Source: Promethearchaeota archaeon (GTDB taxonomy: Archaea; Asgardarchaeota; Lokiarchaeia; Sigyniarchaeales; SOKP01). From it: DNA of 64,000 bases. The notes beneath the pieces were generated by a model. It made no database searches and had not been told where the DNA came from. It was given only the letters and a program-made list of their open reading frames with translations. Below, one piece after another: positions 5,354 through 59,679 of the stretch. The stretch is taken from the NCBI GenBank assembly GCA_019057865.1, contig JAHLWP010000018.1, positions 9,052 through 73,051 of the forward strand, read 5' to 3'. A program made the position numbers and the translations under genes. The stretch's first letter is position 1. Each line of letters opens with the position of its first letter.

Positions 5354-5363
5354 TATAAAAAAT

Positions 5364-30177: not shown

Positions 30178-30183
30178 ATTAAA

Positions 30184-32627: not shown

Positions 32628-32639
32628 CGGGGAAAAAGA

Positions 32640-35651: not shown

Positions 35652-35655
35652 AAAG

Positions 35656-39041: not shown

Positions 39042-39083
39042 ACTAATTGATTAAAGAGGAAAAAGAAAAGAGGTTAAAAAAAA

Positions 39084-40193: not shown

Positions 40194-40757
40194 TAATCTA
40201 ATTTTTTTTTTATTTAGATGATTGTTTCTATAAAAATTCGTATTCTAAATTGAGATTAAGGAAATAAAATTGATAGGTTTTGTTCAAAAGGCAACTAATT
40301 TCAGATAAGATCGATTTTTTTTATACAATTTTGTAACCTTATAATTATTCTGATATATTAAATCTTAGATTTTTTATGTTATCTGTCGGATATATTACAA
40401 ATTTCATTATCACAATTTTGTTTTAGATAAAATTTGTACATTATTGTCTATCGGAAAGGATGATTTTTTCATAATTTTTTTTTATTTTCGATAATATAAT
40501 TTTAATTTATGGTCGCTTTTGAGCATTTTGTTCCTTTGTGATCGCCTTTTTCATACAAGTTTCTCGGATGCAGCATTTTTTGGATTAAAAACGTTCGATT
40601 CTGAAAATTGAATAGTGTATTTATGATCGAGATCGATCATTTCATTTAAATAGGTAATTTTCTTATAAAATTACAGTATAAAAAAAAAAAAAATTACATT
40701 AGAATTTATTTTTGAGGATTATTTTTAGCGATAATGAAAGTTTTAAGGTGATATATT

Positions 40758-42014: not shown

Positions 42015-42038
42015 AGTACTTAAGAAGGTTGTAATTAA

Positions 42039-43769
42039 ATGTCTAATAAAGAAGAAAATAAAGAAGAATCTGTAAGGATTGGAACTTTTATTTGTCTATG
42101 TGGCTCAAAAATAGGAAGTGTCATAGATTGTAAATTACTCGCGGATTTTGCGAAGACATTTCCTGATGTAATATATTCTGAAGATAATTTATTTGCTTGC
42201 TCAGAATCAGGGTTAGCTAGTATTAAAAACGCAATTGAAAAATATAATTTAGAGAGAGTTGTAATAGCAGCCTGTACTCCAAGCACACATGAAAGTCTTT
42301 TTCAGAATACAATCCGAGAATCAGGAATAAATCCATATTTATTTGCATTAGTAAATATTCGTGACCAATGTGCTTGGGCGCATATGTCTGAACCTGAAAA
42401 AGCGATGGAAAAAGCAAAAGAGTTAATCGCATTAAACGTTTCAAGAGTTAAGCTTCTGGAACCTATCTATGAAACAACTGTAGATATCTGCCATTCTGCG
42501 TTAGTAATAGGTGGGGGAATAGCCGGACTAACAGCGGCACTTAGTTTAGGTAACCAGGGATTTAACTCATGTATTATTGAAAGAGAAAAAGAACTTGGGG
42601 GATTAGTTAGAAAGATTCACTATATTTTAGGAACTGGAGATCCTCAAGAATATCTTAAAAGTCTAATTGAACAGGTTAAAAATCATAAAAGGATTAAAAT
42701 TTTTACAAATGTTAAGATAGAAGAAATAAATGGATTCATCGGAAATTTCTCAACATTAATAAAATATAATGGTCGAAAAAAAGAACTTGAGTCTGGAGTA
42801 ATTATAGTTGCAACCGGAGGAAGAGAGTACAAGCCGAGAGAATTTTTATATGGTACGGATGAAAGAATCATAACACAGTTGGAATTAGAACAAAAAATTG
42901 TAGCCGATCAAGTAAAAGGACAAACAATAGCAATGATACAGTGTGTCGGATCTAGAAATGAAGAAAGACCAAATTGTAGCAGAATTTGTTGTGTAGAAGC
43001 AATTAAAAATGCTTTAAAATTAAAAGAAAAAAACCCTAGACTAAATGTTTGCATTTTAAATAGAGATATTCATACCTATGGTTTTAAAGAAGATTATTAT
43101 AACGAAGCAAGAGAAAAAGGAGTAATTTTTATTCAATTTGATGAAAATTTTGAACCAATAGTTAATATCAAAACTAATAAATTGACGATTACTGTAAAAG
43201 ATGTGTTATTAAATGAGCGTGTAACCCTTAAAACAGATCTTATTGCTTTAAGCTCTGCTTTTCTTCCCTCAGAAAATATGGAGCTTTCTAAAATGTTAAA
43301 AGTACCACTTGATAAAAACGGATTTTTCTTAGAAGCTCATGTTAAACTACGTCCACTTGATTTCGCAACTAGCGGAATATTCTTATGTGGCGCAGCACAA
43401 TGGCCAAAATTCATTGATGAAACAATTTCACAAGCATTAGGAGCTGCCTCTAGAGCGGGCACTATTTTATCAAAAGAAAAAATAAATATTGTCGGCTCTG
43501 TTGCAGAAATCGATGAGGATATGTGCATTGGTTGCGGTAATTGTAGGGATTTATGCGCCTATAATGCAATAGAAATTGGTGAAAGGCAATCAGAGTATAA
43601 AGCAGAAGATATAATACAAGAACCTATAGTAGAGTTAACTTGGTATAAATCTAAGGTTCTTCAAGCTTTTTGTAAAGGCTGTGGAGCGTGTATTGACGTA
43701 TGTCCTGTTGGAGCCTTGTCTTTAAAGCATTTTACTTTTCAACAAATTTCAAATAATTTTACTAAATAA
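42039..43769 (+). CDS. hdrA: HdrA-family module B
   Basis: GTFICLCG, GGGIAG, EAHVKLRP, CKGCGAC. Confidence 0.85.
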   Translation: MSNKEENKEESVRIGTFICLCGSKIGSVIDCKLLADFAKTFPDVIYSEDNLFACSESGLASIKNAIEKYNLERVVIAACTPSTHESLFQNTIRESGINPYLFALVNIRDQCAWAHMSEPEKAMEKAKELIALNVSRVKLLEPIYETTVDICHSALVIGGGIAGLTAALSLGNQGFNSCIIEREKELGGLVRKIHYILGTGDPQEYLKSLIEQVKNHKRIKIFTNVKIEEINGFIGNFSTLIKYNGRKKELESGVIIVATGGREYKPREFLYGTDERIITQLELEQKIVADQVKGQTIAMIQCVGSRNEERPNCSRICCVEAIKNALKLKEKNPRLNVCILNRDIHTYGFKEDYYNEAREKGVIFIQFDENFEPIVNIKTNKLTITVKDVLLNERVTLKTDLIALSSAFLPSENMELSKMLKVPLDKNGFFLEAHVKLRPLDFATSGIFLCGAAQWPKFIDETISQALGAASRAGTILSKEKINIVGSVAEIDEDMCIGCGNCRDLCAYNAIEIGERQSEYKAEDIIQEPIVELTWYKSKVLQAFCKGCGACIDVCPVGALSLKHFTFQQISNNFTK

Positions 43770-43790
43770 AAAAAAGAGGATAAGCTTAAA

Positions 43791-45476
43791 ATGTTAGAAG
43801 AAGGAAAGAATGAAAAAGAGATTAGAGTAGGAGTATTTGTTTGTCATTGTGGTTCTAATATCGGCGGAGTGATTGATTGTAAGAAACTCGCTAAATATGC
43901 GAAGAAATTACCTAATGTGGTTTATACTGAAGATAATCTTTACACATGCTCTGAAAATGGATTAGCCAGCATTAAGAAGGCAATAAAAGAGTATAATTTA
44001 AATCGGATAGTTGTAGCATCATGTACTCCAAGAACTCATGAACCTTTGTTTCGCGAATGTATCTCAGAAGCAGGATTAAATCCCTACCTTTTCAATTTTG
44101 TCAATATTAGAGAACAATGTTCATGGGTTCATAGGCAATATCCTAATGAAGCCTATGAGAAGGCAAAAGATCTAATTAGCATGGGAGTGGCTAAAGCCAC
44201 AAAATTAGAACCTTTGGAAATGATTACAATAAAAATTAATCCTAATGCTTTAGTAATTGGTGGTGGAATTTGCGGAATGAGTGCTGCACTTAATTTAAGT
44301 AGACAGGGATTTAAAACTTATCTTATTGAAAAGGAGAATGAATTAGGTGGAAGGTTAAATACACTTTATAAACTATTTCCACATGACACCGAGGCTTTAG
44401 AGCTAATAAAGGATATTAAAAATAAAGTTCAAAAAGCTAGGAATTTAGAAGTTTATACAACAACAAGAATAAAAAATATTGATGGATTTGTGGGGAATTA
44501 CGATATAGAAATTGTACAGAATGGTAAAATTATCAATTTAACAGTAGGAGCGATAATCGTTGCTGTAGGTTCTTCGACACTTACACCTGAAGGCATGTTT
44601 GGATATGATGGCAAAATAAGAATAACTCAGTACGAATTGGAAGCAAAACTAAGAAGAAATGAAATAGATGCAAATAATGTTATAATGATACAATGCGTGG
44701 GATCTCGGAATGATGAGAGACCTTATTGTTCAAGCATTTGCTGCATGACAGCTATAAAGAATGCGCTAATTATCAAAGAAAGAAATCCAATTTCAAATAT
44801 TACGATATTATTTAGAGATTTATACTCTCCCGGGACTAATTATGAAAAATATTATAGAAACGCAAGAGAAAAAGGAATACTCTTTATAAAATACAAACCT
44901 GATAAATTGCCTTCTGTAGAAGAAAATCAAATAAAGGTATTTAATGAATACATTGGAGATCATATAATAATTCCTTATGATTTATTGGTATTATCAACTC
45001 CATTAGTTGCCAATGAAGATAATAAGGAACTTGCGCAAAAATTAAAAGTACCATTGGAAGCCAACAATTTCTTCTTAGAAGCCCACGTAAAGTTACGCCC
45101 TAATGATTTTGCGACAGATGGAGTATATGTAGGTGGCTCAGCAAAATGGCCTGTGGACGTCTCAGAAACTATAACTCAAGGTTATGCAGCAGCAGCTAGG
45201 GCGAGTACGATTTTGTCTCATGAGACGATTAAAGTAGAGGGTGCTATTGCTACTGTAGATCCTGAAAAATGCATAGGATGCGGATCCTGCGAAATGATCT
45301 GTCCATTTAATGCTATACAAATAGAAAGGATGGAATTGGGGTTAAAAGCCACCATTTTTTCAGCTGTTTGTAAGGGCTGTGGAGTTTGTGGTGCAAGTTG
45401 TCCTTTAAATGCAATTTCTATGAAACATTTTATGGACCTTCAAATATATGAACAAATATATGCATTATCAGAATGA
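43791..45476 (+). CDS. hdrA: HdrA-family module B (close paralog of 30184..31866)
   Basis: GVFVCHCG, ASCTPRTHE, EAHVKLRP, CKGCGVC. Confidence 0.87.
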   Translation: MLEEGKNEKEIRVGVFVCHCGSNIGGVIDCKKLAKYAKKLPNVVYTEDNLYTCSENGLASIKKAIKEYNLNRIVVASCTPRTHEPLFRECISEAGLNPYLFNFVNIREQCSWVHRQYPNEAYEKAKDLISMGVAKATKLEPLEMITIKINPNALVIGGGICGMSAALNLSRQGFKTYLIEKENELGGRLNTLYKLFPHDTEALELIKDIKNKVQKARNLEVYTTTRIKNIDGFVGNYDIEIVQNGKIINLTVGAIIVAVGSSTLTPEGMFGYDGKIRITQYELEAKLRRNEIDANNVIMIQCVGSRNDERPYCSSICCMTAIKNALIIKERNPISNITILFRDLYSPGTNYEKYYRNAREKGILFIKYKPDKLPSVEENQIKVFNEYIGDHIIIPYDLLVLSTPLVANEDNKELAQKLKVPLEANNFFLEAHVKLRPNDFATDGVYVGGSAKWPVDVSETITQGYAAAARASTILSHETIKVEGAIATVDPEKCIGCGSCEMICPFNAIQIERMELGLKATIFSAVCKGCGVCGASCPLNAISMKHFMDLQIYEQIYALSE

Positions 45477-45497
45477 TTATTGGAGAAAGGTGTTCAA

Positions 45498-46262
45498 ATG
45501 TATAACCCAAAAATTTTAGGATTTTTATGTAATTGGTGCTCATATGCGGGTGCAGATCTTGCCGGTGTTTCGCGATTCAATTATCCACCAAATTTAAGGA
45601 TAATTAGAGTAATGTGCAGCGGAAGAATTGATCCAAATTTTATTTTGACAGCATTCGAAAAAGGTTTAGACGGAGTATTGGTAGCAGGATGTCACCTTGG
45701 AGATTGCCATTATCTTACAGGAAATTATCATACAAAATATAAGATTTTAATGATGAAAAAGATACTTGAAAAACTTGGGTTTGAAACAAAGAGATTACGA
45801 CTTGAATGGGTATCTGCTGCCGAAGGGAAAATATTTGCAGATTTAATAACTGAATTTACTGAAGAACTGATAAAACTAGGACCTTTATCTGTTAAATTTG
45901 ACAAAATTTTGATAAAGAATTTGTTTTTTGCCAAACAAATCTGTTCTGACTTTAGACTTAGATGGTTAATTAGTAGAGAAAGGGATTTAGTTGAAAGTGA
46001 AAATGCTTATGGTGAAAAAATTCCCGAGGAGAAATTTGAAAAATTATTAGACCATATAATAGAAACAGAATTGATTAAAATTAAAATTCAAAATCTTATT
46101 GAAGAAAAGGGTTTATCTGCAGAAGAGATTTCAAGTAAATTAAAAATTCCATCAGAAAAAGTTATGGAACATCTTATTACAATGAATGATGACCATAAAA
46201 TAACATTTAATATCAAAAACAAAATGGCAATATTTGCTAAAGAGGGAGGAATGGTTAAATGA
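45498..46262 (+). CDS. mvhD: MvhD [2Fe-2S] subunit with C-terminal wHTH-like extension
   Basis: FLCNWCSYAGADLAG; tail LSAEEISSKLKIPSEKVMEHL; likely start ATG45498. Confidence 0.85.
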   Translation: MYNPKILGFLCNWCSYAGADLAGVSRFNYPPNLRIIRVMCSGRIDPNFILTAFEKGLDGVLVAGCHLGDCHYLTGNYHTKYKILMMKKILEKLGFETKRLRLEWVSAAEGKIFADLITEFTEELIKLGPLSVKFDKILIKNLFFAKQICSDFRLRWLISRERDLVESENAYGEKIPEEKFEKLLDHIIETELIKIKIQNLIEEKGLSAEEISSKLKIPSEKVMEHLITMNDDHKITFNIKNKMAIFAKEGGMVK

Positions 46263-49200
46263 GTAAACTTGAATCTAAAATTAAAATAGGAGCAGTATTA
46301 GTAGTCGGAGGTGGAATTGCCGGGATACAAACATCATTAGATCTCGCAGAGTTAGGATTTAAAGTCTTTATAGTAGAGAGTTCTCCCGCAATAGGTGGTA
46401 TCATGAGCCAATTAGATAAAACATTTCCTACAAATGACTGTGCAATGTGCATTTTAAGCCCTAAATTAGTAGAGGTGGGTAGACATCAAAACATTCAAAT
46501 AATTACTCACGCTGAAGTTGAGAATCTAGAGGGTTCGGCTGGAAATTTTAATGTTATATTAAAAAAGTATCCAAGATATATCAATGAAGATAAATGTACA
46601 GGTTGTGGACTTTGTTCAGAGTGGTGCCCGATCGAAACTTCAAATGAATATGATGAGGGATTACGAAAAAGAAAAAGTATTTTTATTAAATATCCACAAG
46701 CAATTCCAAAATTACCATCTATAGATAGAACAATTTGTATCGGTTGCCGGTTATGTGAATATATATGTGAAGCAAAAGCCATTGATTTTACTCAAAAAGA
46801 AGAAATGATTGAATTGAAAGTCGGTTCTATAATTGTCGCTCAAGGATCTACTCCCTATAATCCGTTACCTCTAAAAATGTATGGATATGGGCGTTTTTCG
46901 AACGTGATAGCAAGTACCGAATTTGAACGAATATTGAGTGCATCTGGACCTTTCATGGGTCATGTTTTACGACCTTCCGACGGAAAAATACCAGAAAAAA
47001 TAGTATGGATACAATGTATTGGTTCAAGAGATCGAAGAATAGGTAATAATTATTGTTCAGCAGTTTGTTGCATGTACGCAATTAAAGAAGCAATAATTGC
47101 AAAGGAGCATGAACCAGAAATTGACTGTTACATTTTTTTTATAGATATAAGAGCTTATGGAAAAGGATTCGAGGATTATTATCTGAGAGCTCAAGAATTA
47201 GGAATCAAATTCTTAAGAGGAAAAATTGCCTTAATTAATGAAGATCCACAAACGAAAAGTTTAATTATAGCCCATGAAAATAGTGAAACAGGGGAGGTAA
47301 TAGAAGAACATTTTGATATGGTTGTTCTCTCTATAGGTTTGCAACCTTCTAATTCTGGTATTGATTTGAGTAAAAAATTGGGAGTTAATCTTAATAAATA
47401 TAATTTTATTGACACAAATATATTTTCTCCTTTAGAAACTAATAAGCCCGGGATTTTTGTATGTGGGACTTGTTCTGGTCCTAAAGATATTCCTGAAACA
47501 GTAGCAGAAGCAAGTGGCGTGGCTGGAAAAGTCTCTTCATTTCTTTCTACTGAAAGAAATACATTAACATCTATAAAAGAATATCCTCCTGAACTTTCAA
47601 TTGAAGATCAAGAAGCTAGGATTGGAGTATTTATTTGCCACTGTGGAATAAACATCGGTGGAATTGTAAATATCCCTGAAGTAGTTAAATTTGCTAAAAC
47701 TCTTCCTAACGTTGCTTATGCTGAAGAAAATTTGTATACCTGTTCCCAAGATACCCAAGATAAAATGAAACAAATAATAGAAGAATATAAATTAAATAGG
47801 GTTGTTGTAGCCTCTTGTACTCCTCGGACACACGAATCATTGTTCCACAATACCATTAGAGAAGCAGGATTGAATCCTTATTTATTTGAATTAGTAAATA
47901 TTAGAGAACAGTGTTCCTGGGTTCATATGTCCATCCCTGAAGAAGCTACAGAAAAAGCAAAAGACCTAGTAGCAATGAATGTTGCCAAAGCTAAACTTTT
48001 AGAACCAATATATGAAACATCTGTAGATATTACGCACTCCGGTCTAGTAATAGGCGGTGGAATAGCAGGAATGAATGCTGCATTAGAATTAGCAAATCAA
48101 GGTTTTGAAGTTTATTTGATTGAAAAAGAAAAAGAGTTAGGTGGTTTTGTAAGAAATATACATTATGTTCTAGAAGATGGGGATCCTCAAGAATATCTCG
48201 AGCAAATTGTTAATCAAGTATTAAATCATGATAAAATTAAAGTATTCACTAGCACAAAGATTAAAGATGTACAGGGATTCGTCGGAAATTTTCTAGTTAC
48301 AGTGAATTATAATAGTAAGAAAAAAGAACTTGATACTGGAGTAATTATTGTTGCTACAGGTGGAACAGAATATAAACCAATGGAATACATGTATGGAACT
48401 GATGAAAGAATATTAACTCAGCAAGAATTGGAACAAAAGATTGTTTTAAATGAAATAGATGCAGAAACAGTTGTAATGATTCAATGCGTTGGTTCGAGAA
48501 ATGAAGAACGTCCTAATTGTAATAGAATATGTTGTTCTCTTGCATTAAAAAATGCTTTAAAGTTAAAAGAGAAAAACCCTAAGAGGAATATTTGTATTCT
48601 ATATAGAGATATTCGAACTTATGGTTTTAAGGAGAATTACTACGGGGAAGCAAGAGAAAAAGGGATTATTTTTATCCGATATGATGAAAAACTCGAACCC
48701 GAGGTTAGCATTAAAGAGAATAAGTTGATTGTCTCTGTAAATGATTCATTATTAAATGAACAAATAGTTATTAAGCCTGATCTTATAGTATTGAGTGCTG
48801 GCTTTTTACCAACAGAAAATAAAGAATTATCCCAAATGTTAAAAGTTCCCCTTGAACAGAATGGATTTTTCCTAGAAGCACATGTGAAGCTTCGTCCACT
48901 TGATTTTGCTACTGATGGAATTTTCGTATGTGGAACGGCACAATGGCCAAAATTTATTAATGAGACAATTCCACAAGCAAAAGGAGCAGCGGCGAGAGCT
49001 GCTACAATTTTATCTAAAGAAAAAATGAAAATTATAGGTTCAACTGCAGAAATCGAAGAAAATAAATGTATGGGTTGCGGTGAATGTAGGGATATATGTA
49101 TTTATGATGCAATTGAGCCAATTGAGACCATAATTAATTTTAAAGGTATCCTGGATTCAGAAATTCCATATGTAAGTTTAATCCGATATAAATCTAGAGT

Positions 49201-49321
49201 CCTTCCGGCTGTATGTAAAGGATGTGGAGCTTGTGAAGGTGTTTGTCCAGTTGGGGCTATAAGTTTAAAGCATTTCACAAATCAACAATTAATTGCTATG
49301 ATTCAATCTTATTTAGGATAA
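46259..49321 (+). CDS. hdrA: Large two-module HdrA (A+B fusion)
   Basis: DKTFPTNDCAMC, two FAD motifs, several 4Fe-4S motifs. Confidence 0.9.
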   Translation: MSKLESKIKIGAVLVVGGGIAGIQTSLDLAELGFKVFIVESSPAIGGIMSQLDKTFPTNDCAMCILSPKLVEVGRHQNIQIITHAEVENLEGSAGNFNVILKKYPRYINEDKCTGCGLCSEWCPIETSNEYDEGLRKRKSIFIKYPQAIPKLPSIDRTICIGCRLCEYICEAKAIDFTQKEEMIELKVGSIIVAQGSTPYNPLPLKMYGYGRFSNVIASTEFERILSASGPFMGHVLRPSDGKIPEKIVWIQCIGSRDRRIGNNYCSAVCCMYAIKEAIIAKEHEPEIDCYIFFIDIRAYGKGFEDYYLRAQELGIKFLRGKIALINEDPQTKSLIIAHENSETGEVIEEHFDMVVLSIGLQPSNSGIDLSKKLGVNLNKYNFIDTNIFSPLETNKPGIFVCGTCSGPKDIPETVAEASGVAGKVSSFLSTERNTLTSIKEYPPELSIEDQEARIGVFICHCGINIGGIVNIPEVVKFAKTLPNVAYAEENLYTCSQDTQDKMKQIIEEYKLNRVVVASCTPRTHESLFHNTIREAGLNPYLFELVNIREQCSWVHMSIPEEATEKAKDLVAMNVAKAKLLEPIYETSVDITHSGLVIGGGIAGMNAALELANQGFEVYLIEKEKELGGFVRNIHYVLEDGDPQEYLEQIVNQVLNHDKIKVFTSTKIKDVQGFVGNFLVTVNYNSKKKELDTGVIIVATGGTEYKPMEYMYGTDERILTQQELEQKIVLNEIDAETVVMIQCVGSRNEERPNCNRICCSLALKNALKLKEKNPKRNICILYRDIRTYGFKENYYGEAREKGIIFIRYDEKLEPEVSIKENKLIVSVNDSLLNEQIVIKPDLIVLSAGFLPTENKELSQMLKVPLEQNGFFLEAHVKLRPLDFATDGIFVCGTAQWPKFINETIPQAKGAAARAATILSKEKMKIIGSTAEIEENKCMGCGECRDICIYDAIEPIETIINFKGILDSEIPYVSLIRYKSRVLPAVCKGCGACEGVCPVGAISLKHFTNQQLIAMIQSYLG

Positions 49322-49335
49322 TGAGGTGTATAAAT

Positions 49336-49767
49336 ATGGAAAAAGATAAAAAAGGGTTTAATCCAAAAATAATTACATTTTTATGTAATTGGTGTGGTTA
49401 TGCTGGAGCTGATTTAGCAGGAGTAAGTCGTTTTCAATATCCTCCTACCATTAGAATAATAAGGGTAATGTGTTCTGGAAGAATCCAACCCTCTTTAATA
49501 CTTAATGCATTTAATCGTGGAAGTGATGGAGTTTTAGTATGTGGATGCCATTTAGGGGATTGCCATTATATTTCGGGAAATGAAAAAGCTGAGGAAGGAA
49601 TTAAGATAACTCAAAAATTACTTGATTTTTTAAGAATTGAACCAGAAAGACTTAGATTGGAATGGGTATCAGCAGCGGAAGGGGCTAAGTTTGCAGATGT
49701 AGTAAAAAATTTTACCGAGCATCTTATTTCAATCGGACCAATTAATATAGAAAGCGAGAGTGTGTAA
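49336..49767 (+). CDS. mvhD: MvhD [2Fe-2S] subunit
   Basis: FLCNWCGYAGADLAG, GCHLGDCHY; ATG49336 lies 6 nt after GAGGTGT. Confidence 0.9.
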   Translation: MEKDKKGFNPKIITFLCNWCGYAGADLAGVSRFQYPPTIRIIRVMCSGRIQPSLILNAFNRGSDGVLVCGCHLGDCHYISGNEKAEEGIKITQKLLDFLRIEPERLRLEWVSAAEGAKFADVVKNFTEHLISIGPINIESESV

Positions 49768-49772
49768 GAAAT

Positions 49773-52700
49773 ATGGTAGAGAGTAATAATTCTGAAAAAC
49801 AAGTATTGGTAATAGGGGGTGGTGTAGCTGGGATTTCTGCTGCCCTAGACCTAGCAGATCAAGGTCATCTTGTCTATTTAGTTGAAAAAAGCCCCTCAAT
49901 TGGAGGGAAAATGGCTCAATTGGATAAAACTTTTCCGACTTTGGATTGTTCAATATGTATTTTAGCACCTAAAATGGTCGAATGTGCTCGTCACCCTCGA
50001 ATTGAACTTTTAACTTATTCAGAAGTGAAAAGAGTTGACCGAATTCGTAATGGATCTACCTTCAAGGTAAGAATTCTACTTAAACCTAGATATATTGATA
50101 GTTCAAAATGCACTTCATGTGGAACATGTGCGCAAAAATGCCCCTATAAAAATTTTCCCTCTGAATTTGAACAAGGGTTAAGTAAAAGAGGTGCTGCGTA
50201 TATTCCTTTCCTTCAAGCAGTTCCAGCTGTATATCTTATTGATTCAGAAAATTGTACTTACTTTAAAAATGGTACATGCAAGGTATGTGAAAAATTTTGT
50301 CCGGCCCACGCAGTAGATTTTGAACAAAAACCAAAAGAAATAGAAATTGAAGTCGCTTCCATTATAGTAGCCACTGGTTTTGATCTAATGGATGTTAGTT
50401 CCTTAGAGAGGTACGGATATGGAAAATATTCCAATGTAACTGTATCCTTGGAATATGAAAGAATTATGTGTGCATCAGGTCCAACTAAAGGCGAAATTTT
50501 ACGCCCTTCCGATAATAAACACCCCCACAAGATAGGATTTATTCTATGTGTTGGATCGAGAAATGTTAATTTAAAGCCTTATTGTTCTAAAATTTGTTGT
50601 ATGTATGCTACAAAAGAAGCAATTATGACGATGGAACACCATTCTGATGCAGAAATTTTGGTTTTTTATAATGATTTACGCACGATTGGAAAGAATCATA
50701 ATGAATTTATTGATAGAGCTAAATCAGATTATAAGGTTCAATATGTCAGAGGTTTACCTAATAAGATTTATGAAAATACAGAAACAAAAGATCTTATAAT
50801 AAGACATAAAGACTTTGACACAGGTGAAATTAAATTTGATACAGTAGATATGGTTGTTTTATTTCCAGCAGTTATACCTAGCAGAGGAGCAGAGGAATTT
50901 AATGATATATTAGGGGTCGAAATGGACGAATATGGTTTTATAAAGCCAGTATCATCAACAAATAATATTGAAACTAATATTCCTGGAATTTATGTATGTG
51001 GATGTGTTCATGGTCCAGAAGATATTTCAACCTCTGTTGCTGAGGCTAGCGGTGCTGCTAGTAAAGCAGCTTCTAGAACTTCAATAACTACTATAGATGA
51101 AATAAAAGAAGATATTGTTGAAAGAAAAGTATCTAAAAGCGATCCTCCTCGAATCGGTGTTTTTATCTGTCATTGTGGTTCTAATATTGCAGGCTTTGTG
51201 GATGTTAAAAAGGTAGCGGAAGAAATTAAAACTGTTCCTGATGTAGCTTATGTTGAAAGAAATTTATATACTTGTTCGGAAGAATCTCAGAATAGTATAA
51301 AGGCGGCAATTGAAAAATATGATTTAAATAGGGTTGTAATTGCTGCGTGTACTCCTAGAACCCATCTTCCATTATTTCAGGGCACTTGTCATGAAGTAGG
51401 TCTTAATCCATATTTAGTCCTATTTGCAAGTATTAGAGAATTAGTGAGTTGGGTTCACATGTCAGAACCTGAAAAAGCTACACAAAAAGCAAAGGAACAG
51501 ATTTTAATGTGTATCGCAAAATCTCGGCTTGTAGAACCATTACACGATATTGAAGTTAATGTATTACCTGCTTCATTAGTTATTGGAGGGGGAATTGCAG
51601 GCATGACTGCAGCATTGGCTATGGCAAAAAAAGGATTTAAAGTATACATCGTAGAGCGGAGTGAAAATCTTGGTGGATTCATTCGGAACTTAAATGAAAT
51701 TAATACTGAGGGAACCTCTTCAGAACAAGTACTAACTCCAATATTGCAAGCAATAAAGACAAATCCTAATATAGAAGTTTTCATATCCTCAACAATAAAA
51801 GCTGTAAATGGTTCAATTGGCAACTTTCTAATAGTTATTGAACAAAACAGTGAAGAAAAAGAAATTAAAACTGGCACTATTATTGTTGCTGTGGGAGGAA
51901 AAGAATTTAAACCAAATGGATATTACCATTATGAAGAATATGAAAATATCTTTACAAATTTAGAACTTGAAGGTTTAATTCGAAATGAGCAATTACAAGA
52001 TGGTGAATCTATTGCTTTTATTCAATGCGTTGGTTCCCGTGAAGAACAAGGAAGAACTTATTGTTCATTGACTTGTTGTGAAGAATCTATAAAAAATGCT
52101 TTAACTGTCAAGAAGCGGTATCCTAATTCTCAGATTTTCATATTTTATCGAGACATAAGAGTATCTTATAAAGAAGAGATTGAATATAGAAAAGCAAGAG
52201 AAAAAGGCATTAATTTTATACAATATAAACCGGAAAATCCCCCAATGTTGAAAAATAAGGATGACAAATTAATATTAAATGTGTCTGATGCTTTAACAAG
52301 AATGAAATTCGAATTATCTTTAGATAAAGTAGTGCTTGCTACTCCTTTAATAGCATGGGAAGAAAATAAAAAGCTATCTGAAATGTTAAAAGTCCCCCTT
52401 GATAAAAACGGTTTCTTTTTTGAAGCACATCCTAAATTAAGACCTGTTGATTTTGCTACGGATGGAATCTTCACATGTGGAACTGCTCAATGTCCTAAAA
52501 ATATAAAAGAATCTTTAAGTCAAGCTCTGGGCGCGGCATCTAGAGCTTTAATCCCCTTAATGAATAGTAAAGCATCGGTCGAGGGTGCTACATCAAGTTT
52601 ACCTGAATTTAATAAAAAATTATGTACAGGCTGTGAAGTCTGTCTAACTGTATGTCCTTATAATGCCATCTCTAAGAACGAATTAGATGAGATTGAAATA

Positions 52701-52844
52701 AATCAAGTTCTTTGTAAAGGCTGTGGAGTATGTGGGGCTACGTGTACTAATCAAGCTCTTGTAATAAAACATTTCACAAATGAGCAAATTATTTCTCAAA
52801 TCAATTCTTGTAAAGAAGAAAAACTGGTTGAACTAAAGTTATAA
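49773..52844 (+). CDS. hdrA: Large two-module HdrA (A+B fusion)
   Basis: DKTFPTLDCSIC, two FAD motifs, EAHPKLRP, C-terminal ferredoxin. Confidence 0.9.
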   Translation: MVESNNSEKQVLVIGGGVAGISAALDLADQGHLVYLVEKSPSIGGKMAQLDKTFPTLDCSICILAPKMVECARHPRIELLTYSEVKRVDRIRNGSTFKVRILLKPRYIDSSKCTSCGTCAQKCPYKNFPSEFEQGLSKRGAAYIPFLQAVPAVYLIDSENCTYFKNGTCKVCEKFCPAHAVDFEQKPKEIEIEVASIIVATGFDLMDVSSLERYGYGKYSNVTVSLEYERIMCASGPTKGEILRPSDNKHPHKIGFILCVGSRNVNLKPYCSKICCMYATKEAIMTMEHHSDAEILVFYNDLRTIGKNHNEFIDRAKSDYKVQYVRGLPNKIYENTETKDLIIRHKDFDTGEIKFDTVDMVVLFPAVIPSRGAEEFNDILGVEMDEYGFIKPVSSTNNIETNIPGIYVCGCVHGPEDISTSVAEASGAASKAASRTSITTIDEIKEDIVERKVSKSDPPRIGVFICHCGSNIAGFVDVKKVAEEIKTVPDVAYVERNLYTCSEESQNSIKAAIEKYDLNRVVIAACTPRTHLPLFQGTCHEVGLNPYLVLFASIRELVSWVHMSEPEKATQKAKEQILMCIAKSRLVEPLHDIEVNVLPASLVIGGGIAGMTAALAMAKKGFKVYIVERSENLGGFIRNLNEINTEGTSSEQVLTPILQAIKTNPNIEVFISSTIKAVNGSIGNFLIVIEQNSEEKEIKTGTIIVAVGGKEFKPNGYYHYEEYENIFTNLELEGLIRNEQLQDGESIAFIQCVGSREEQGRTYCSLTCCEESIKNALTVKKRYPNSQIFIFYRDIRVSYKEEIEYRKAREKGINFIQYKPENPPMLKNKDDKLILNVSDALTRMKFELSLDKVVLATPLIAWEENKKLSEMLKVPLDKNGFFFEAHPKLRPVDFATDGIFTCGTAQCPKNIKESLSQALGAASRALIPLMNSKASVEGATSSLPEFNKKLCTGCEVCLTVCPYNAISKNELDEIEINQVLCKGCGVCGATCTNQALVIKHFTNEQIISQINSCKEEKLVELKL

Positions 52845-53079
52845 GTTCTGGTAAGAGGAGATTTTACCTATATAAGTAGACATTAAAGGAAGGAAATAAG
52901 TAAAATTACTTTTAAAAAATTTTTATATCCTTTTATTTTGTGTTTGTTATTTGAAAAAAATCAATAATGAATCTAATTCAATAGATAGAGTCAATAATAC
53001 CTTCAAATATTCTTTTTCTCCATACTTGTTTTTAAAATAGACATCTAATACACCAGTAATCGTAAAAAAGACTCCAAGT

Positions 53080-53259
53080 CTAATTAATCTTGAAGAATTA
53101 GAAATCTCAGTCCATAATATACAAAGATTGCCGTTGTTCATAAAAAATCTTAAAAACCTTAAAATCTTGAGAGTTTACTCTTCAGAGAATCTGAAGAATA
53201 AAGAAAGACCAAAATGGTTAAAGGAGATGCCTAACTTAGTAAAAATTCAATTTTATTAA
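53080..53259 (+). pseudogene. Start-less 3' fragment of a leucine-rich-repeat gene
   Basis: Translates LINLEELEISVHNIQRLPLFIKNLKNLKILRV...MPNLVKIQFY*; upstream in-frame TAG at 53038. Confidence 0.6.
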
Positions 53260-53307
53260 CCATTAACAAGACTGAAATTATTTTAAAAGTTATAATGATA
53301 CAAGTAT

Positions 53308-53404
53308 AAAAAGAAAAGAAAAATAAAAAACTTGTTTAAAAAAATGGATTTTTGAATTGTACTTAGGAGATTGCCCTGTTAGAAACATCGGTGGATTACC
53401 TGCG
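53308..53404 (-). repeat. Actin 3'-end remnant 1: codons QVIHRCF* plus ~70 nt of actin 3'UTR/poly-T terminator
   Basis: 53379-53404 matches 54868-54893 with 3 synonymous changes; 53308-53378 aligns with 54796-54867. Confidence 0.9.
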
Positions 53405-53416
53405 TAATCCTCTAAA

Positions 53417-53518
53417 CTTAATACATCAGTAAAGAAATCAGAAATGCTAGCTAAAATTATAAGCTTTGGGAAAAGAAAATTTGAGAGATACAATAAAGCA
53501 TTAAAAAAAAGGAAATAG
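53417..53518 (+). pseudogene. 3'-end remnant of the FrhB-like gene (39084..40193)
   Basis: LNTSVKKSEMLAKIISFGKRKFERYNKALKKRK* vs LNTSVKKSEMLAKVISFGKRKFQRYKEALKER* (27/32 identical); followed by a T-rich terminator-like tract. Confidence 0.92.
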
Positions 53519-53972
53519 GTAAAATTATTTATTTTTTTATTTCTTCTTTTATTTCGTAAGATTCTGCTAGATGTGGTATTAATAATAAACAACAAGCTAA
53601 AAATAACTATAAATCTTTAATGCTTCTCGTCTAGCCGATCCCTTCAGGTAAGTCTGACTCTGATGTGCGAAATTATATCGATTTCATGGCAATGGATTAT
53701 TACTTCTCCCAATATCCAAGATTAGTAGTTTTCTTTTTTTGGATTATATTTTATTTATTTTTAAGAATTGGCTTTTTTTACGATTTCTTTGTTGTTTAAT
53801 TTTATTAATAGATTTTATTGATTTGAGAAAAAGCATTCGAATTTCGGCTTTTTTGACATGGTAAAGACGATATTTATCATCAATTTTTTGACTCATTTAA
53901 GAAAAAATAATCATGAGAAAAAAGAATAAAAAAATAAATGAAAAAATAAAAAACTTGAAGAGGTTTACCTCT

Positions 53973-54040
53973 TTAGAAACATCGGTGTATTACTTGTGGA
54001 CCCATTTCTTTGTATTCTCGCCTCGTGACCCACATACGAT
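53973..54040 (-). pseudogene. Actin 3'-end remnant 2 ([21 protein letters not shown])
   Basis: 21/21 aa identical to the actin C-terminus; 12 substitutions in 66 nt, all at third codon positions. Confidence 0.95.
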
Positions 54041-54041
54041 A

Positions 54042-54061
54042 TAATACAATCTAATACAATC
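54042..54061 (+). repeat. Tandem 10-mer TAATACAATC x2 at the remnant-2 junction
   Basis: Seen directly, starting 2 nt after actin homology ends. Confidence 0.75.
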
Positions 54062-54258
54062 TGAAATATGAGATAGAATTTATTGTTTTTTGTTGATATC
54101 TATTGAATTTTAACATAAATTGAATTAATGAGATAATAATTTTCATTCAATTCTATTTTTATTCAAGATTTTAAGAATAAAAAAGGAAAATAAAAAAAAT
54201 TAAATAAAGAGATAAAAGTAGAATCTAAAAATATATTAATTTATGGTTTTTTCATTAT

Positions 54259-54600
54259 TTATTTTGCAATATATTCGTCTGGATCGCCACCATCTTCGAG
54301 ATGTTCAATGAAATTTTTCAATCCATTTAAAATAGTTGTAAGAGAACGCTTTTTTATTTTTTCATGCTTTAAAATTTTATAATCAACCCAATACGATAAT
54401 TCTGTCATGTCGCCTTTCTCTTTTAATATATAGCCATATCCATTAAAATCAGGGTGGTTTACTTTCAATGAAAGACTTTCATTTTCTATTCGATCTGTAA
54501 TAGTGATATTCAATTTAGAAGCGAGAGTTATGTTTTCTAAAACCTCCCAAATTTTTTTTGGAGGAGCTCTAATTTCGATATTTGATTCAAACTTAGGCAT
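54259..54600 (-). CDS. SRPBCC/polyketide-cyclase (START-like) family protein, short and possibly internally deleted
   Basis: N-terminal IEIRAPPKKIWEVL and C-terminal helix LNGLKNFIE; only 113 aa. Confidence 0.65.
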   Translation of the reverse strand: MPKFESNIEIRAPPKKIWEVLENITLASKLNITITDRIENESLSLKVNHPDFNGYGYILKEKGDMTELSYWVDYKILKHEKIKKRSLTTILNGLKNFIEHLEDGGDPDEYIAK

Positions 54601-54795
54601 AAAATCACTTCATAAATTTTTGAACTATCTTAAGTCATTTTGATTTTTATACTTTTGCTCCAAATTTAAAAATTCATATAAAAATAGCTTTAAAAATGAT
54701 GCCTATAAGGAGCTTGGAAAGAAAATCTATCTCTTTACTTATAGTAATTTTTATTGTTCAGATACTAAAATTAAGAATTAAGATTTGAAGTCTTG

Positions 54796-54820
54796 AAAAA
54801 AAGAAAAGAAAAATAAAAAA
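54796..54820 (-). terminator. Poly-T terminator-like tract downstream of actin
   Basis: T-rich tract on the minus strand ~50-70 nt after the stop; retained in the remnant copy at 53308-53330. Confidence 0.55.
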
Positions 54821-54867
54821 CGGGTTAAAAAAATGGATTTTTGATTTACGTTGAGGAGATTTCCCCA

Positions 54868-56013
54868 TTAGAAGCATCGGTGAATTACTTGCGGTCCCAT
54901 CTCCTTATATTCGCGTCTGGTTACCCACATGCGATGGAAAGTTTTAAGTGACGAAAGAATGCTTCCACCAATCCAAACAGAATACATACGCTCTGGAGGT
55001 GCGATTATTTTGACGTCAACACTCTCAGGGATTTGTTCTTTGATTTCCTTAGTTAAACGCTCCTTAATCCCTGGGAACATAGTACTTCCACCAGAGAGAA
55101 CGATGTTGCTGTAAAGATCCCTTCTTAGGTCGACATCGCACTCGGAAATGGAGCCTACGATCACATCATCTAAAGGTTCGAGTTCTTTTCCGATTACACT
55201 TGGATTGAAGAGACACTCGGGTCCGAGAAAACGTTCCACGCCAACCATTATGGTCTCTCCATCAGGGAGCATGTAGCTTTTCTCCATTCCGGCGACCTTC
55301 TTACTCAACATCATTTCCTTTTCGGGATCTATCGCGACATAGCATAATTTCTCCTTGATATCTCTCACAATCTCCTTTTCGGCAGATGTCGTGAAAGAGT
55401 ATCCTTTCTGTCTAAGTAATCTTTGTAAATAATTGGTAATATCTCGACCAGCTAGATCAATTCTTTGGATAGCATGGCTTAAAGCAAAACCCTCGAAAAT
55501 TGGCACAACGTGGGAGACCCCATCACCAATATCTATAACGCATCCTGTGGTACGACCTGAAGCGTAGAGGGATAATACTGCTTGCATGGCTACATAAAGT
55601 GCTGGAGTGTTGAAAGTTTCAAACATAATTTCTGCCATTTTTTCCCGATTTGGTCTGGGATTTAAGGGGGCTTCGGTCAAAAGTATAGGGTGTTCACTAG
55701 GATCAATCCTGAGGTCTGTATAAAAGGTGTAATGCCAAATTTTTTCCATGGCTGTCCAGTCTTCTATAATACCATGCTCAACTGGAAACATTAATTTGAG
55801 GACACCTTTAAGTTGCATTGCTTCTTCTCCGATGTAATATTCCCTAGTATAATGTTCAACGTCTGTCATTATAGATTCATACTTTGGATAACCTATGAGG
55901 GTTGGAAAAACTGATCGAGGTTGATCTTCTCCGGCGAAGCCATTTTTTGAAATACCAGTACCATTATCAACCACAAGTGCCTTAGCGCTTAAAAAGCTTT
56001 CTTCTTCTGCCAT
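54868..56013 (-). CDS. Lokiactin (eukaryote-like actin)
   Basis: [78 protein letters not shown], terminal HRCF. Confidence 0.98.
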
Positions 56014-56488
56014 AATTCTTTTTCAGCCTATATTTTTAATTTTAATTTTTATAGATATTATTTCTAGATGTTTTTTTATATTGCTTAAGGTAATATTAAT
56101 TTTTATATTTTTATCAAATAATTGCTTTTTTTATAAACAATTAATGGGTAAAATAAAAAATTTAATAATCTAATAAATTTCATCTTTATAAATTTTTTTA
56201 ATACAGAAATAAAACGTACTATATACAAATAAGTTTTAAATAAAATATTTAAAAGTAACTAATATTTTGGATTTCTAAAAAAGCTTGTAATAGCTTGATT
56301 TTATATCTCTTCTATGTTTGCATTATAAAAAATTAGTGTAAAAATAAACGCGTATGATGAAATTGTTATAAAAAAATAGTAACTAGAAATATCTGTTATC
56401 ATATCAATAATATCGACAAAAAAACAAATAAAAAGAATTTAATCTAAAATTCATTAAATTATTTGTTAATCTCATCACTTAAAATTTT

Positions 56489-57946
56489 ATGACTTTAAAA
56501 ATGGAATTGAACCTTGATTATTTAGAAGAAAATATTGACCAAATAGGTATTAAAGAGGCATCCGCTTTACTAAAAGAATTGATTGTAAGTTCAAAAGATC
56601 CTCTATCTCGGCAAAAAGCTTTAAGAATCTTTGGTTCAATTGATAATAGCAAAAACTTCAAATTTTTTGAGCAGTTATTTCTTTCTGATGAAAATTTTAA
56701 TATTAGGCTAGAAACAGGATATGTTTTAAGGGATAAATATCTTAGACATAAAAAATTTGTACCTCTTTTAGAATTTACTTTAAATAAACTTGATAATGTG
56801 CAGCAGAGACTTCTTGCTGTAGAAATACTAAATCTAATAAATACAACAAATTCAAGAAAAATAATAATTGATTATCTAAAGAGATTGATAAAAACAGAGT
56901 TTAAAAGCAAATTTGAAAAATTTTTCAATAGAATATTAACAGATGAACTTGTAAATCCAATTCCAAGTACGATTATAGATACTTGTATTAATTTAATTCT
57001 ATACGATTATTACTCTAATAAATGTAGATACCATATTACAACGAGAGAAGGAAAAATTGTATCATTAAACTGTGAAGGATCCAATTTGAAAAAGATCTCA
57101 GAGATTCTAGAATTTAATAGATTAATATATTTAGAACATCTTTTACTCCAAAGAAATAAAATTAAAAATATTGAGGGTTTTGCACATTTAAATAGATTAA
57201 AGACTCTAAATCTTAGTAATAATCAGTTAGGAAGAATAGAAAACTTAGAAGTTTTAAAAGAAACTTTAGAAGAATTAGATTTATCAAATAATAAGATTGA
57301 AAAGATAGAAAATCTAGAGCCATTAAGAAATTTGAGGAAACTATCTTTAGAATCTAATTTGATTAAGGAAATTGAGGGTTTAGAGAATTTAGTAAATTTA
57401 GAAGAGTTAAACTTAAGTAGTAATAACATTGGAGTTATTAAGACTCTAAACTATTTGTTAAAATTAAGAAAGCTAAATCTCTCTTTCAATAAATTAGAGA
57501 AGATCTCAGGCTTAAATAAATTAAGAAATTTATTATGGTTATATTTAAATAACAATTTAATTAAATGTATTGAAAATCTTGATACTTTAAAAGATCTAAA
57601 GGGACTTTATCTCTCAAATAATTGTATTGAGACAATAAAAAATTTAACAAATTTAACAAATCTAAGAAAATTAGAATTATCAAATAATAGTATCCAGAGA
57701 ATTCAAGGATTAGAAAGCCTCAGAAAACTTCAAGAAATATTTTTAGATAAAAATAACATAAGTAAATTGGAAGGTTTAGACAATTTAGAGAATTTAATAA
57801 TTCTTTTTCTTGAAAATAATGAAATTTCAGAGTTTAGTAATGAGAGTATTGAGAATTTAAAGAATCTTAATTTTATATTCTTAAATGAAAATCCATTAAC
57901 GCCAAAAAGTTGGGAAATTTATAGGAAAAAGACTAAATATCCATAA
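56489..57946 (+). CDS. HEAT-like N-terminus + Sds22-type leucine-rich repeat protein
   Basis: About 12 22-residue LxxLxLxxNxIxxIExL repeats. Confidence 0.88.
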   Translation: MTLKMELNLDYLEENIDQIGIKEASALLKELIVSSKDPLSRQKALRIFGSIDNSKNFKFFEQLFLSDENFNIRLETGYVLRDKYLRHKKFVPLLEFTLNKLDNVQQRLLAVEILNLINTTNSRKIIIDYLKRLIKTEFKSKFEKFFNRILTDELVNPIPSTIIDTCINLILYDYYSNKCRYHITTREGKIVSLNCEGSNLKKISEILEFNRLIYLEHLLLQRNKIKNIEGFAHLNRLKTLNLSNNQLGRIENLEVLKETLEELDLSNNKIEKIENLEPLRNLRKLSLESNLIKEIEGLENLVNLEELNLSSNNIGVIKTLNYLLKLRKLNLSFNKLEKISGLNKLRNLLWLYLNNNLIKCIENLDTLKDLKGLYLSNNCIETIKNLTNLTNLRKLELSNNSIQRIQGLESLRKLQEIFLDKNNISKLEGLDNLENLIILFLENNEISEFSNESIENLKNLNFIFLNENPLTPKSWEIYRKKTKYP

Positions 57947-58523
57947 GAAAAATCTCTATCTCTTTGTTTTTTAGGTAATCATCAATCCATATTTCTATTA
58001 ATGTCTCATCATAATAATTTGAATCTATATAAAATTGATTTTTTCTTATCCCTATGATTCTAAAACCTAATTTTTTATAAAGATGTTTTGCTCTTTCATT
58101 ATTTGAGAAACAGCTTAAGATAATTTTTTCTTTATGATTTAAATGTTTAGATTCTTTTATTGCTATATCAATTAAATTTCTGCCGATACCTAAGTCGCGA
58201 TACTTTCTTTTAACTATAATACCTAATAAACCAACATGAGAAGCAGCATCCCATTCTGAGTTTGAAATCTCACAATGGCCAATAATATTATATGGAGGAT
58301 TATGTTCTGGGATTTCAGCAATAATACATATCTCATTTTCTTTTTTAATATTATGATACCAAGATTCTTTCTCTAATTGAGTTCTTACTGGATAAAAAAC
58401 AGGAATGTATATTCCTTCTTCTATGACTTCATTGAAATTGTTCCAAACGCCTTCTACATCAGATTTTTTTACATGTCTAAAGATAATTTTTTCTCTGTTT
58501 TTTAACTCTAAGACCTTTTTCAT
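57933..58523 (-). CDS. GNAT-family N-acetyltransferase
   Basis: YRDLGIGRNL, NERAKHLYKKLGF. Confidence 0.88.
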   Translation of the reverse strand: MKKVLELKNREKIIFRHVKKSDVEGVWNNFNEVIEEGIYIPVFYPVRTQLEKESWYHNIKKENEICIIAEIPEHNPPYNIIGHCEISNSEWDAASHVGLLGIIVKRKYRDLGIGRNLIDIAIKESKHLNHKEKIILSCFSNNERAKHLYKKLGFRIIGIRKNQFYIDSNYYDETLIEIWIDDYLKNKEIEIFLMDI

Positions 58524-58568
58524 TATTTAAATATAAATTTTTATAATTAAATTCCTTATGGTAATATT

Positions 58569-59027
58569 ATGGAAAAAGAAAATGATGAGCGAGTAAAAAA
58601 AGAGATCAAAGAAAAAGAAAAAACTAAAGCTTATATTGACAATATCGCTCAACATAAAAAGCAACCAATAGCAAAAGACTTAGTTAATTTGAAACATGTT
58701 GAGGTAAAGAAGCAAGAAGTTAGCCAAGAAACAATGGACCTTGCCCAAACTTTAAAAGAACAATACTTAGAACATGACCAGTTTGAAAGTCTTTCAAATG
58801 ATGAAATAACCATACTTGAATCTATTATGGATAAAAGATTATTCTTAACTCGCATTGCGATAATTGCAAATCAAAGTAGAATACCATTAGGGATAGAACC
58901 TTTTAAAAAAGCAGATTTAGAAAAATTTTTAGATCGTCTCATCTCTAAGGGATATATCAATGTAGAAAAAGTAGAGGATAAATTAGTCTATTATCTTACA
59001 GAAAGAGGTAAATATCGCGTTCAATAG
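58569..59027 (+). CDS. Hypothetical protein with C-terminal winged helix
   Basis: LDRLISKGYI...VYYLTERG wing motif. Confidence 0.6.
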   Translation: MEKENDERVKKEIKEKEKTKAYIDNIAQHKKQPIAKDLVNLKHVEVKKQEVSQETMDLAQTLKEQYLEHDQFESLSNDEITILESIMDKRLFLTRIAIIANQSRIPLGIEPFKKADLEKFLDRLISKGYINVEKVEDKLVYYLTERGKYRVQ

Positions 59028-59145
59028 ATCAAAAAGGATTAATTAATTCAATATTTTACAATCATGTTTATAACATATGACTAATTCTTAAATTAATAAT
59101 TTCTTTAAGTTTATTTATCAAAACTATTAAGATGGTTAAGAGAAG

Positions 59146-59679
59146 ATGCTTGAAGGTAAGAATGTGAATTTGAGGATTCGTGAGAAGGAGGACTTACCAC
59201 TGATTGCAGAATGGGTTAATAATCCTGAGTTCTGGGGTGAATTTTTTTCACCTCTACAGAGGTCCAGAACAAAGATGGAAAAGGCACAGGATAATAATCC
59301 TTTTGAATCAGAGATGTTTCTTATAGAGAAAAAAGATGGAAGCAAAATTGGTTTTACATTTCACTTTTGCATGCTGCATCCTATGGGTAAGTTATTGGAA
59401 ATGGGTTTTGCTTTAATTCCAAGTGAAAGGAGAAAAGGCTACTGCACTGAAGCTGCCAAGATTATGGTGGACTATTTGTTTCTTTCAAAAGAAATAGTCT
59501 GTATCCAAGCCCTTACTGATGTTGGGAATATAGCTTCTCAGAAGGTTTTAGAAAATGCCGGTTTTAAAAAGGAAGGAGTGATTCGTAAACGTTTTTTCAC
59601 AAGAGGAGAATGGAGAGATATCTGGTTTCATAGTATTCTCAGAGAAGAATGGAAAGAACCAAAAATTTTAAAAAATTAA
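59146..59679 (+). CDS. RimJ/RimL-type GNAT N-acetyltransferase
   Basis: RRKGYCTEA, NIASQKVLENAGFKKEG. Confidence 0.9.
   Translation: MLEGKNVNLRIREKEDLPLIAEWVNNPEFWGEFFSPLQRSRTKMEKAQDNNPFESEMFLIEKKDGSKIGFTFHFCMLHPMGKLLEMGFALIPSERRKGYCTEAAKIMVDYLFLSKEIVCIQALTDVGNIASQKVLENAGFKKEGVIRKRFFTRGEWRDIWFHSILREEWKEPKILKN

Follow-up and report, generated by a model that had tools for sequence, protein, structure and literature searches.

How does the 3' end of a gene for an FrhB-like redox-enzyme subunit come to lie 13 kb downstream of an intact copy of that gene, back to back with the 3' end of an actin gene? This question is raised by a contig of Promethearchaeota archaeon (GCA_019057865.1, JAHLWP010000018.1), of which we analysed a stretch of 64,000 nucleotides, hereafter the window (C31:9052-73051 of a 4.26-Mb, 87-contig metagenome-assembled genome, or MAG). 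A first-pass annotation, made from the letters alone, had described positions 53417-53518 as the displaced 3' end of the frhB-like gene and had proposed that frhB and actin were once adjacent. Asgard archaea are the archaeal lineage closest to eukaryotes, and recombination and gene flow in this lineage are, to our knowledge, little documented. Read along the window, the locus consists of the live frhB gene ending in the tail that we call F1, an hdr/mvh module, an older frhB tail (F0), a scrap of a leucine-rich-repeat (LRR) gene, actin tail C joined to the fragment in question (F2), a spacer, actin tail B with a 113-aa open reading frame (ORF), and the live actin gene.

Results

F2 is a non-coding frhB tail

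Translation of F2 from 53417 to 53515 gives LNTSVKKSEMLAKIISFGKRKFERYNKALKKRK (33 residues), followed by a TAG stop at 53516-53518 and, directly 3' of this stop, by a T-rich tract. The live frhB tail at 40095-40190 translates as LNTSVKKSEMLAKVISFGKRKFQRYKEALKER, to which F2 is identical in 27 of 32 residues, and at the DNA level 40090-40215 and 53412-53537 form a repeat of 74% identity. F1 and F2 differ at 22 of 96 nt, with 18 of the 22 differences at third codon positions and 16 codons carrying a synonymous change only; so small a number of amino-acid changes was not reached in any of 5000 random placements of the 22 differences. As the differences fall mostly at third positions and alter few amino acids, the divergence arose while both sequences were part of working genes, and not by decay. 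The displaced 3' end with its own stop and T-rich tract, and the many silent changes relative to 40095-40193, were thus as the first-pass annotation had described them. It had also suggested a tblastn search with the F2 peptide as a check, and across the whole 4.26-Mb genome this gave the linked frhB gene as the sole significant match (E 3e-13), with no unlinked paralog matching the F2 tail, so the proposed refutation by a closer unlinked paralog fails. The parentage did not hold: 40095-40193 had been taken as the parent of F2, but the 96 coding bases of F2 differ at 22 positions from this linked tail and at none from the live frhB tail of the sister species G012.

Measured against such G012-like (R-type) alleles, frhB homology sets in at 53407/53408 (AATCCTCT). 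F2, as the final codons of R-type frhB with the TAG stop, occupies 53408-53518 (+) and is 98.5-99.2% identical to the frhB tails of the Type II and Type III haplotypes described below. The T-rich region native to the 3' side of R-type frhB follows at 53519-53605 (+), and 53406-53605 is 96% identical to G012 3924-4119. F2 lacks a start codon, an in-frame TAA is located at 53405-53407, and the internal ATG alone would give a 24-aa peptide; with neither a start codon nor an open frame upstream, F2 is a pseudogene or non-coding relic. It lies outside the FrhB/FdhB Pfam domains (PF04422/PF04432), of which the C-terminal domain stops at residue 334 of 369, F2 matching residues 338-369. We would class F2 as a relic of an frhB-type gene and not as a domain-bearing member of the family, an assignment made via homology to ortholog tails only. 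F2 is a non-functional orphan, made up of the stop and terminator region of an R-type frhB allele together with the 33 codons before the stop; in G012 and several sibling genomes this allele is the frhB gene beside actin.

frhB and actin are neighbours in related species

In G012, the closest species genome, the same flanking genes are present, and frhB and actin converge across a gap of 1.3 kb that contains no hdr genes. In five further species of the genus (G005, G018, G016, G003 and G024) the distance from frhB to actin is 1.7-3.9 kb. The presence of the two genes as neighbours in G012 and these five species implies that the adjacency is ancestral and that F2 is a relic of it; the synteny check in relatives that the first-pass annotation had recommended therefore bears out its view that the two genes were formerly adjacent. 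When loci L033, L036, L038 and L039 were compared with L031 and L034, actin alone was found inverted relative to both conserved flanks (the frhB side and the LRR gene) in G005, G016, G003 and G024, with G000, G012 and G018 showing the opposite orientation. The spacer of the actin-inverted species holds a conserved 324-aa ORF without a Pfam match and sometimes an MFS transporter. A possible further orphan actin tail lies by the LRR gene in G024 (L039:8404-8472; 12 of 23 residues, E 3e-4 in a small database).

The live frhB gene is a chimera of two alleles

The live FrhB-like gene (39084-40193, +) encodes 369 aa with Pfam FrhB_FdhB_N and FrhB_FdhB_C domains and is a chimera, R-type from 39084 to approximately 39785 and D-type from approximately 39807 to the stop. 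The D-type allele is defined by assemblies found via the HdrD-like protein, namely L051/L067 (GCA_019058075.1), L053/L056 (GCA_019058095.1), L052 and L054. Over its 5' 700 nt the live gene is about 99% G012-like, and by sliding identity it matches G012 at 98-100% up to about 39785 and at 68-80% from about 39807, whereas it matches the D-type MAGs at 76-96% in the 5' part and at 97-100% from 39810 on. The last R-specific and first D-specific variants bracket a 22-nt stretch common to both alleles (TGAAGCTCGTAAAAAATTAGAA; 39785-39806, +), and the 138-codon R remnant of Type IV haplotypes opens with the same 22 nt. The homologous crossover falls within 39785-39806, and the chimeric ORF is still open. 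F1 (40090-40215, +), consisting of the D-type live tail and about 20 nt downstream, is the repeat partner of F2 and is 98-100% identical to the D-type MAGs. Judged by allele identity, the linked tail is part of a divergent D-type allele, which presumably arrived together with the hdr block, and F2 is R-type, the same allele as the first 700 nt of the live gene.

The exact chimeric FrhB protein is also encoded in ENA ERZ23498930 scaffold_1792, with 13 kb including the flanks 99.4% identical. Among species representatives, no donor closer than 75% to the D-type 3' part of frhB was found. As a separate observation, 39057-39451 shows zero differences from G012 over approximately 395 nt of frhB while the surrounding genes differ by 4-7%, which suggests a very recent exchange of the frhB allele between the species of the window and G012.

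The hdr/mvh module and the older relic F0

The seven-gene hdr/mvh module (40875-52844, +) consists of genes for an HdrD-like protein, two HdrA-like proteins, MvhD, a long HdrA, MvhD and a second long HdrA, with Pfam matches to CCG, Pyr_redox_2/Fer4 and FlpD. A protein in the same 90%-identity cluster as that of the HdrD-like gene carries the label Promethearchaeota archaeon. A close HdrD ortholog is found in just 2 of 54 species genomes of the genus, and GCA_030620005.1 has the same hdr/mvh gene order in another context. The arrangement of frhB followed by hdr occurs in at least six other assemblies, all of which also carry the older relic tail F0; the hdr insertion is not private to the genome of the window, and it is older than F2. 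F0 (52835-52941, +; KVISSGKRRFYLYK*TLKEGNK*) begins inside the last codons of the final hdrA gene, shares 13 of 19 aa with the live frhB tail and is 71% identical in nucleotides to the F2 region (genome-wide E 1.8e-6). It is present in every hdr-bearing haplotype, including L076 at 93%. Downstream of F0, the scrap of an LRR gene (53041-53259, +) has weak Pfam LRR matches below curated cut-offs. A Pfam search of the block revealed no integrase or transposase domain, the large ORFs all being Hdr/Mvh-type and the small ORFs without such a match; scans for tRNAs in 36000-58000 and for Rfam families in 52700-54950 were both negative.

Several further features of hdr genes were observed. G020 is the one further species genome of the genus in which a close HdrD ortholog occurs; it was considered as a donor and rejected, as its related genes are in another context. 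At G020 L047 (C11:1-19900) related hdr genes with 74-79% protein identity lie at the position of the first hdr cluster of the window's genome, and midway among them is a distant frhB-like gene (35% identical). At L053:4986-6719 (GCA_019058095.1) the hdr module lacks the equivalent of window 45283-47624, and a hybrid 577-aa HdrA replaces the 561-aa HdrA, MvhD and the 1020-aa HdrA-like gene; recombination between paralogous hdrA genes appears to have caused a deletion here. Paralogous hdr/mvh clusters with 45-73% protein identity to the module are present in the genome at window 28885-36100 and on G000 contigs C3, C37, C29 and C23, of which C3 also carries paralogs (71-90% identical) of the three genes upstream of frhB, but no frhB. 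At window 40745-40877 the HdrD-like gene has differing starts in sibling assemblies, giving proteins of 379, 383, 423 and 437 aa.

Two orphan actin tails and a mosaic live actin gene

The sequence immediately before F2 is actin tail C (53308-53404, -), a copy of 54797-54893 with 77-85% identity that comprises approximately 70 nt of D-type actin 3' UTR (53308-53378) and the last 8 codons and stop (53379-53404). The back-to-back actin remnant noted in the first-pass annotation is therefore real, its 53308-53404 copying the actin 3' end. The closeness of F2 to the end of actin homology likewise stands, although the figure of about 12 nt does not: actin homology ends at 53404, and with an R-type reference for frhB the gap is 1-3 nt. 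Type I MAGs are 99.65% identical to the window up to 53378 and divergent beyond this point.

A second orphan actin 3' end, B (53729-54040, -, the tail itself spanning 53932-54040), consists of 22 terminal codons with the stop (53973-54040) and a G012-like UTR that carries a hairpin/T-run (53729-53972), with a terminator-like site at 53973-53958. B is 85.6% identical to G012 5126-5432; its coding part keeps 21 of 22 amino acids, third positions accounting for 12 of the 13 nucleotide differences. Between B and the live gene is the 113-aa ORF (54259-54600, -), which belongs to no Pfam family and whose protein is also encoded beside actin in Type III contigs. The live actin gene (54868-56013; Pfam Actin E 1.6e-133) with its 3' UTR (54797-54867) spans 54797-56013 (-) and is a mosaic relative to G012, with about 96% identity at 54868-54943, 74-87% at 54950-55345 and about 95% beyond. 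The actin gene of G012 has a coding tail like the live tail of the window (3 of 66 differences; 54868-54943, L031:5365-5440) and a 3' UTR like that of orphan B, which makes G012 itself recombinant at the actin stop codon. The mosaic live actin and the recombinant actin tail of G012 together imply that recombination at this locus is pervasive and involved more than one event.

Sibling haplotypes differ in what they retain of a second frhB

The simplest hdr-bearing form is L076 (GCA_048938045.1), 92% identical to the genome of the window, in which frhB, hdr and F0 are followed by approximately 170 nt and then actin. Type I haplotypes (three GCA assemblies, one JGI assembly and two Logan runs) have D-type frhB, hdr, F0, scrap and the UTR of C to 53378, then two small ORFs and actin, and contain no F2. 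In Type II (GCA_019057575.1, JGI 3300032107 and Logan SRR1964815) D-type frhB, hdr, F0 and scrap extend to approximately 53114 and are followed by a complete 370-aa R-type frhB with the F2 tail; beyond this second frhB, the spacer and B of the window recur together with a portion of the 113-aa ORF (98.5% identical to 53406-54703), and then comes actin. Type III (two ENA assemblies) has R-type frhB with the F2 tail, the 113-aa ORF and actin, and is 99.2% identical to 54179-59162. In Type IV (ERZ23498930 and ERZ23499174) hdr and F0 to 52915 are joined to the last 138 codons of R-type frhB, with an in-frame stop already present. Independent D-type, R-type and two-copy haplotypes are thus observed, and across the haplotypes of the window and of sibling MAGs from other samples the second frhB at the position of F2 forms a series of full length, 138 codons, 33 codons and none.

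In the window, the joint between actin tail C and F2 (53405-53407, unstranded) is illegitimate, with 0-1 nt of microhomology as judged against R-type frhB and against A-type and L076 actin tails. The four joints between D and R sequence in the various haplotypes are all different on both sides (D side at 52915, 53114, 53378 and 53404), with 0-5 nt of microhomology. R segments differ by 3-6% between haplotypes, and D segments are 98.6-99.5% alike. The C/F2 joint itself was seen only in contigs of run SRR14803095 (2 under samples_with_this_contig) and in the MAG, and the exact 26-nt pattern spanning the 53405 joint had no match in metagenome contigs. Logan contigs of SRR14803095 are 100% identical to window 52284-55387, 39225-44591 and 45507-49868; as this per-run assembly reproduces the first two of these segments, the joints do not depend on a particular assembler. 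Part of 53150-54250 occurs in 20 runs in 13 studies, a presence that is uninformative on the joints.

Discussion

Our data lean towards F2 being a gene tail that was orphaned when haplotypes recombined one-sidedly, by homology at one end and illegitimately at the other, an origin that we regard as somewhat probable. In the lineage of the window's genome, R-type DNA would have been joined to a divergent D-type haplotype, the D-type block comprising the 3' 400 nt of frhB, the 13-kb hdr/mvh module, F0, the LRR scrap and the actin 3' end. The joining would have involved one homologous crossover in frhB (39785-39806) and one non-homologous joint (53405-53407); in a variant of this model, the homologous crossover could have been in frhB or in actin, and would have been sealed by a non-homologous joint. 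One-sided recombination accounts in one step for the intact chimeric gene, the foreign cargo and the surviving resident tail. F2 would be the tail of the resident allele and not a copy of the incoming one, as it shows 0/96 differences from the live tail of G012 and 22/96 from the linked tail. D-type haplotypes exist on their own, both as L076 (frhB-hdr-F0-170 nt-actin) and as Type I (frhB_D-hdr-F0-scrap-UTR_C). R segments are 3-6% apart between haplotypes, against about 99% identity among D segments, a contrast that speaks for the D block having entered different R backgrounds on separate occasions. A predicted D-type form with the UTR of C running into full actin was present in no sampled genome, L076 being close but with a different UTR.

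Directly shown are the allele identities, the positions of crossover and joint, the synteny in relatives and the independent D-type, R-type and two-copy haplotypes; the order of events, the roles of donor and recipient haplotype and the enzymology are what we infer from these patterns. In the genome of the window, 30700-52014 is 97.7% like the D-type MAG L051 and only about 94% like G012, and sequence identities would not by themselves distinguish donor from recipient. The partner of the left chimeric junction resembles the right joint of Type IV, with its 22-nt overlap, and not the joint at 53405. As such, the left and right junctions may stem from different events that later recombination inside the hdr block brought together, and with 13 kb of shared hdr sequence separating them the two may have been exchanged independently.

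Of the other origins that we weighed, relic formation by deletion is the most substantial, although we consider it unlikely. An ancestor with two units, frhB_D-hdr-F0-scrap-actin_D followed by frhB_R-spacer-actin_R, would have suffered independent deletions across the head-to-head actin_D and frhB_R genes, leaving stumps that vary by lineage; in the genome of the window, 8 codons of actin abut 33 of frhB. One deletion spanning a divergent gene pair yields exactly such back-to-back 3' ends, Type II genomes retain both frhB copies around the hdr block, the series of full length, 138, 33 and no codons resembles progressive loss, and redundant copies and direct repeats favour deletion. However, neither a second actin nor the full two-unit form is present in any sampled haplotype, and the chimeric live frhB would need a separate gene conversion. 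The genome of the window keeps D sequence at 53115-53404 that is absent from Type II, and so cannot derive from the sampled Type II, and the contrast between R segments that are 3-6% apart and nearly uniform D segments also speaks against deletion from one ancestor. Local duplication of the live tail followed by neutral decay, which is the literal parent-and-copy reading of the first-pass annotation, has in its favour the shared strand and contig and the 27 of 32 identical residues, but the concentration of 18 of 22 differences at third positions (0/5000 by chance) and the identity of F2 over 96 nt to the live gene of another species leave it practically without credit, and we count it as already refuted. 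A simple tandem duplication was also dropped, as the two 'copies' are different alleles.

It is very unlikely that the contig is an assembly chimera of co-occurring haplotypes with artefactual joints. Several haplotypes do occur in runs with neighbouring accessions (SRR14803095/100/101), and Type III contigs end just upstream of frhB, a sign of graph forks; against this, no k-mer common to the actin tail and the frhB tail could bridge 53405, the separate Logan assembly is 100% identical over 52284-55387 and 39225-44591, and the chimeric frhB with its flanks recurs at 99.4% identity in the assembly of another project. A site-specific integrative element that targeted the gene 3' end and supplied a replacement tail, with the frhB tails as attL and attR, would have a classic layout here, with gene-3'-end direct repeats around 13 kb of accessory genes and an intact target, and in Type IV a 22-nt repeat flanks the insert. 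This origin we find highly improbable, as searches for an integrase, a transposase and a tRNA gave nothing, identity between the repeats is only 74-77% and they lack an exact core, 400 nt of frhB are foreign, and each haplotype has a right-hand joint of its own (four joints). Campbell-type integration of a circle via the 100-nt tail homology was dropped because the foreign part of frhB begins 300 nt upstream of the repeat.

F2 does nothing itself, and its value is that of a dated scar. Together with the sibling assemblies it reveals that a large hdr/mvh metabolic module is accessory in these Asgard archaea, set between two conserved anchor genes, and that live frhB and actin are mosaics of alleles 20-30% different at silent sites. 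This is direct sequence evidence of both homologous and illegitimate recombination between diverged haplotypes in Asgard archaea. Caution is needed in annotation and phylogeny, as frhB and actin are both chimeras in the genome of the window. More tentatively, the gap between frhB and actin may be a recurrent, recombinase-free capture site that spreads the 13-kb hdr/mvh module between lineages of Promethearchaeota (Loki-type Asgard archaea), a proposal that we find plausible but slightly doubtful. If true, the independent formation of at least four illegitimate joints within a single species-level population would mean that cells of different haplotypes often exchange long DNA, and the ultra-conserved actin gene and frhB would be recombination anchors.

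The scar can be compared with three known systems. In tyrosine-recombinase islands at gene or tRNA 3' ends, as here, the target 3' end is duplicated around accessory DNA and the target gene stays intact, but the frhB locus has no recombinase, exact core or fixed joint, and the 400 nt replaced are bounded by an ordinary homologous crossover. Homology-facilitated illegitimate recombination is known from naturally transformable Acinetobacter, Streptococcus and Pseudomonas (summarised in PMC5361080). There too, a conserved gene provides the homologous crossover that anchors one end, the joint at the other end shows 0-5 nt of microhomology, and the recipient gains cargo for which it has no homolog. 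In contrast to those experimental systems, the frhB case is read by comparing genomes of uncultured Asgard archaea, with haplotypes of a single species-level population as donor and recipient. C-terminal displacement that leaves strings of orphaned 3' regions is known from Rhs, CDI and T6SS effector loci (Jackson et al. 2009, as cited in PMC5361080; Kirchberger et al. 2017, PMC5361080), and the same recombination model has been proposed for the orphaned 3' regions of bacterial Rhs/T6SS loci (PMC5361080). Common to those loci and to ours are a constant 5' part that is kept, an incoming 3' part with cargo, and old 3' ends that persist downstream as orphans; the frhB-actin locus has three frhB tails and three actin tails in a row. 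Rhs, CDI and T6SS loci encode polymorphic toxins, with diversifying selection acting on the variable tails and with immunity genes kept by the orphans. The tails at the frhB-actin locus are instead near-synonymous ends of actin and a redox-enzyme subunit, accompanied by an hdr/mvh electron-transfer module as cargo. F2 belongs to a known class of recombination scar, and what makes it informative is that sibling genomes have kept the intermediate forms unusually well.
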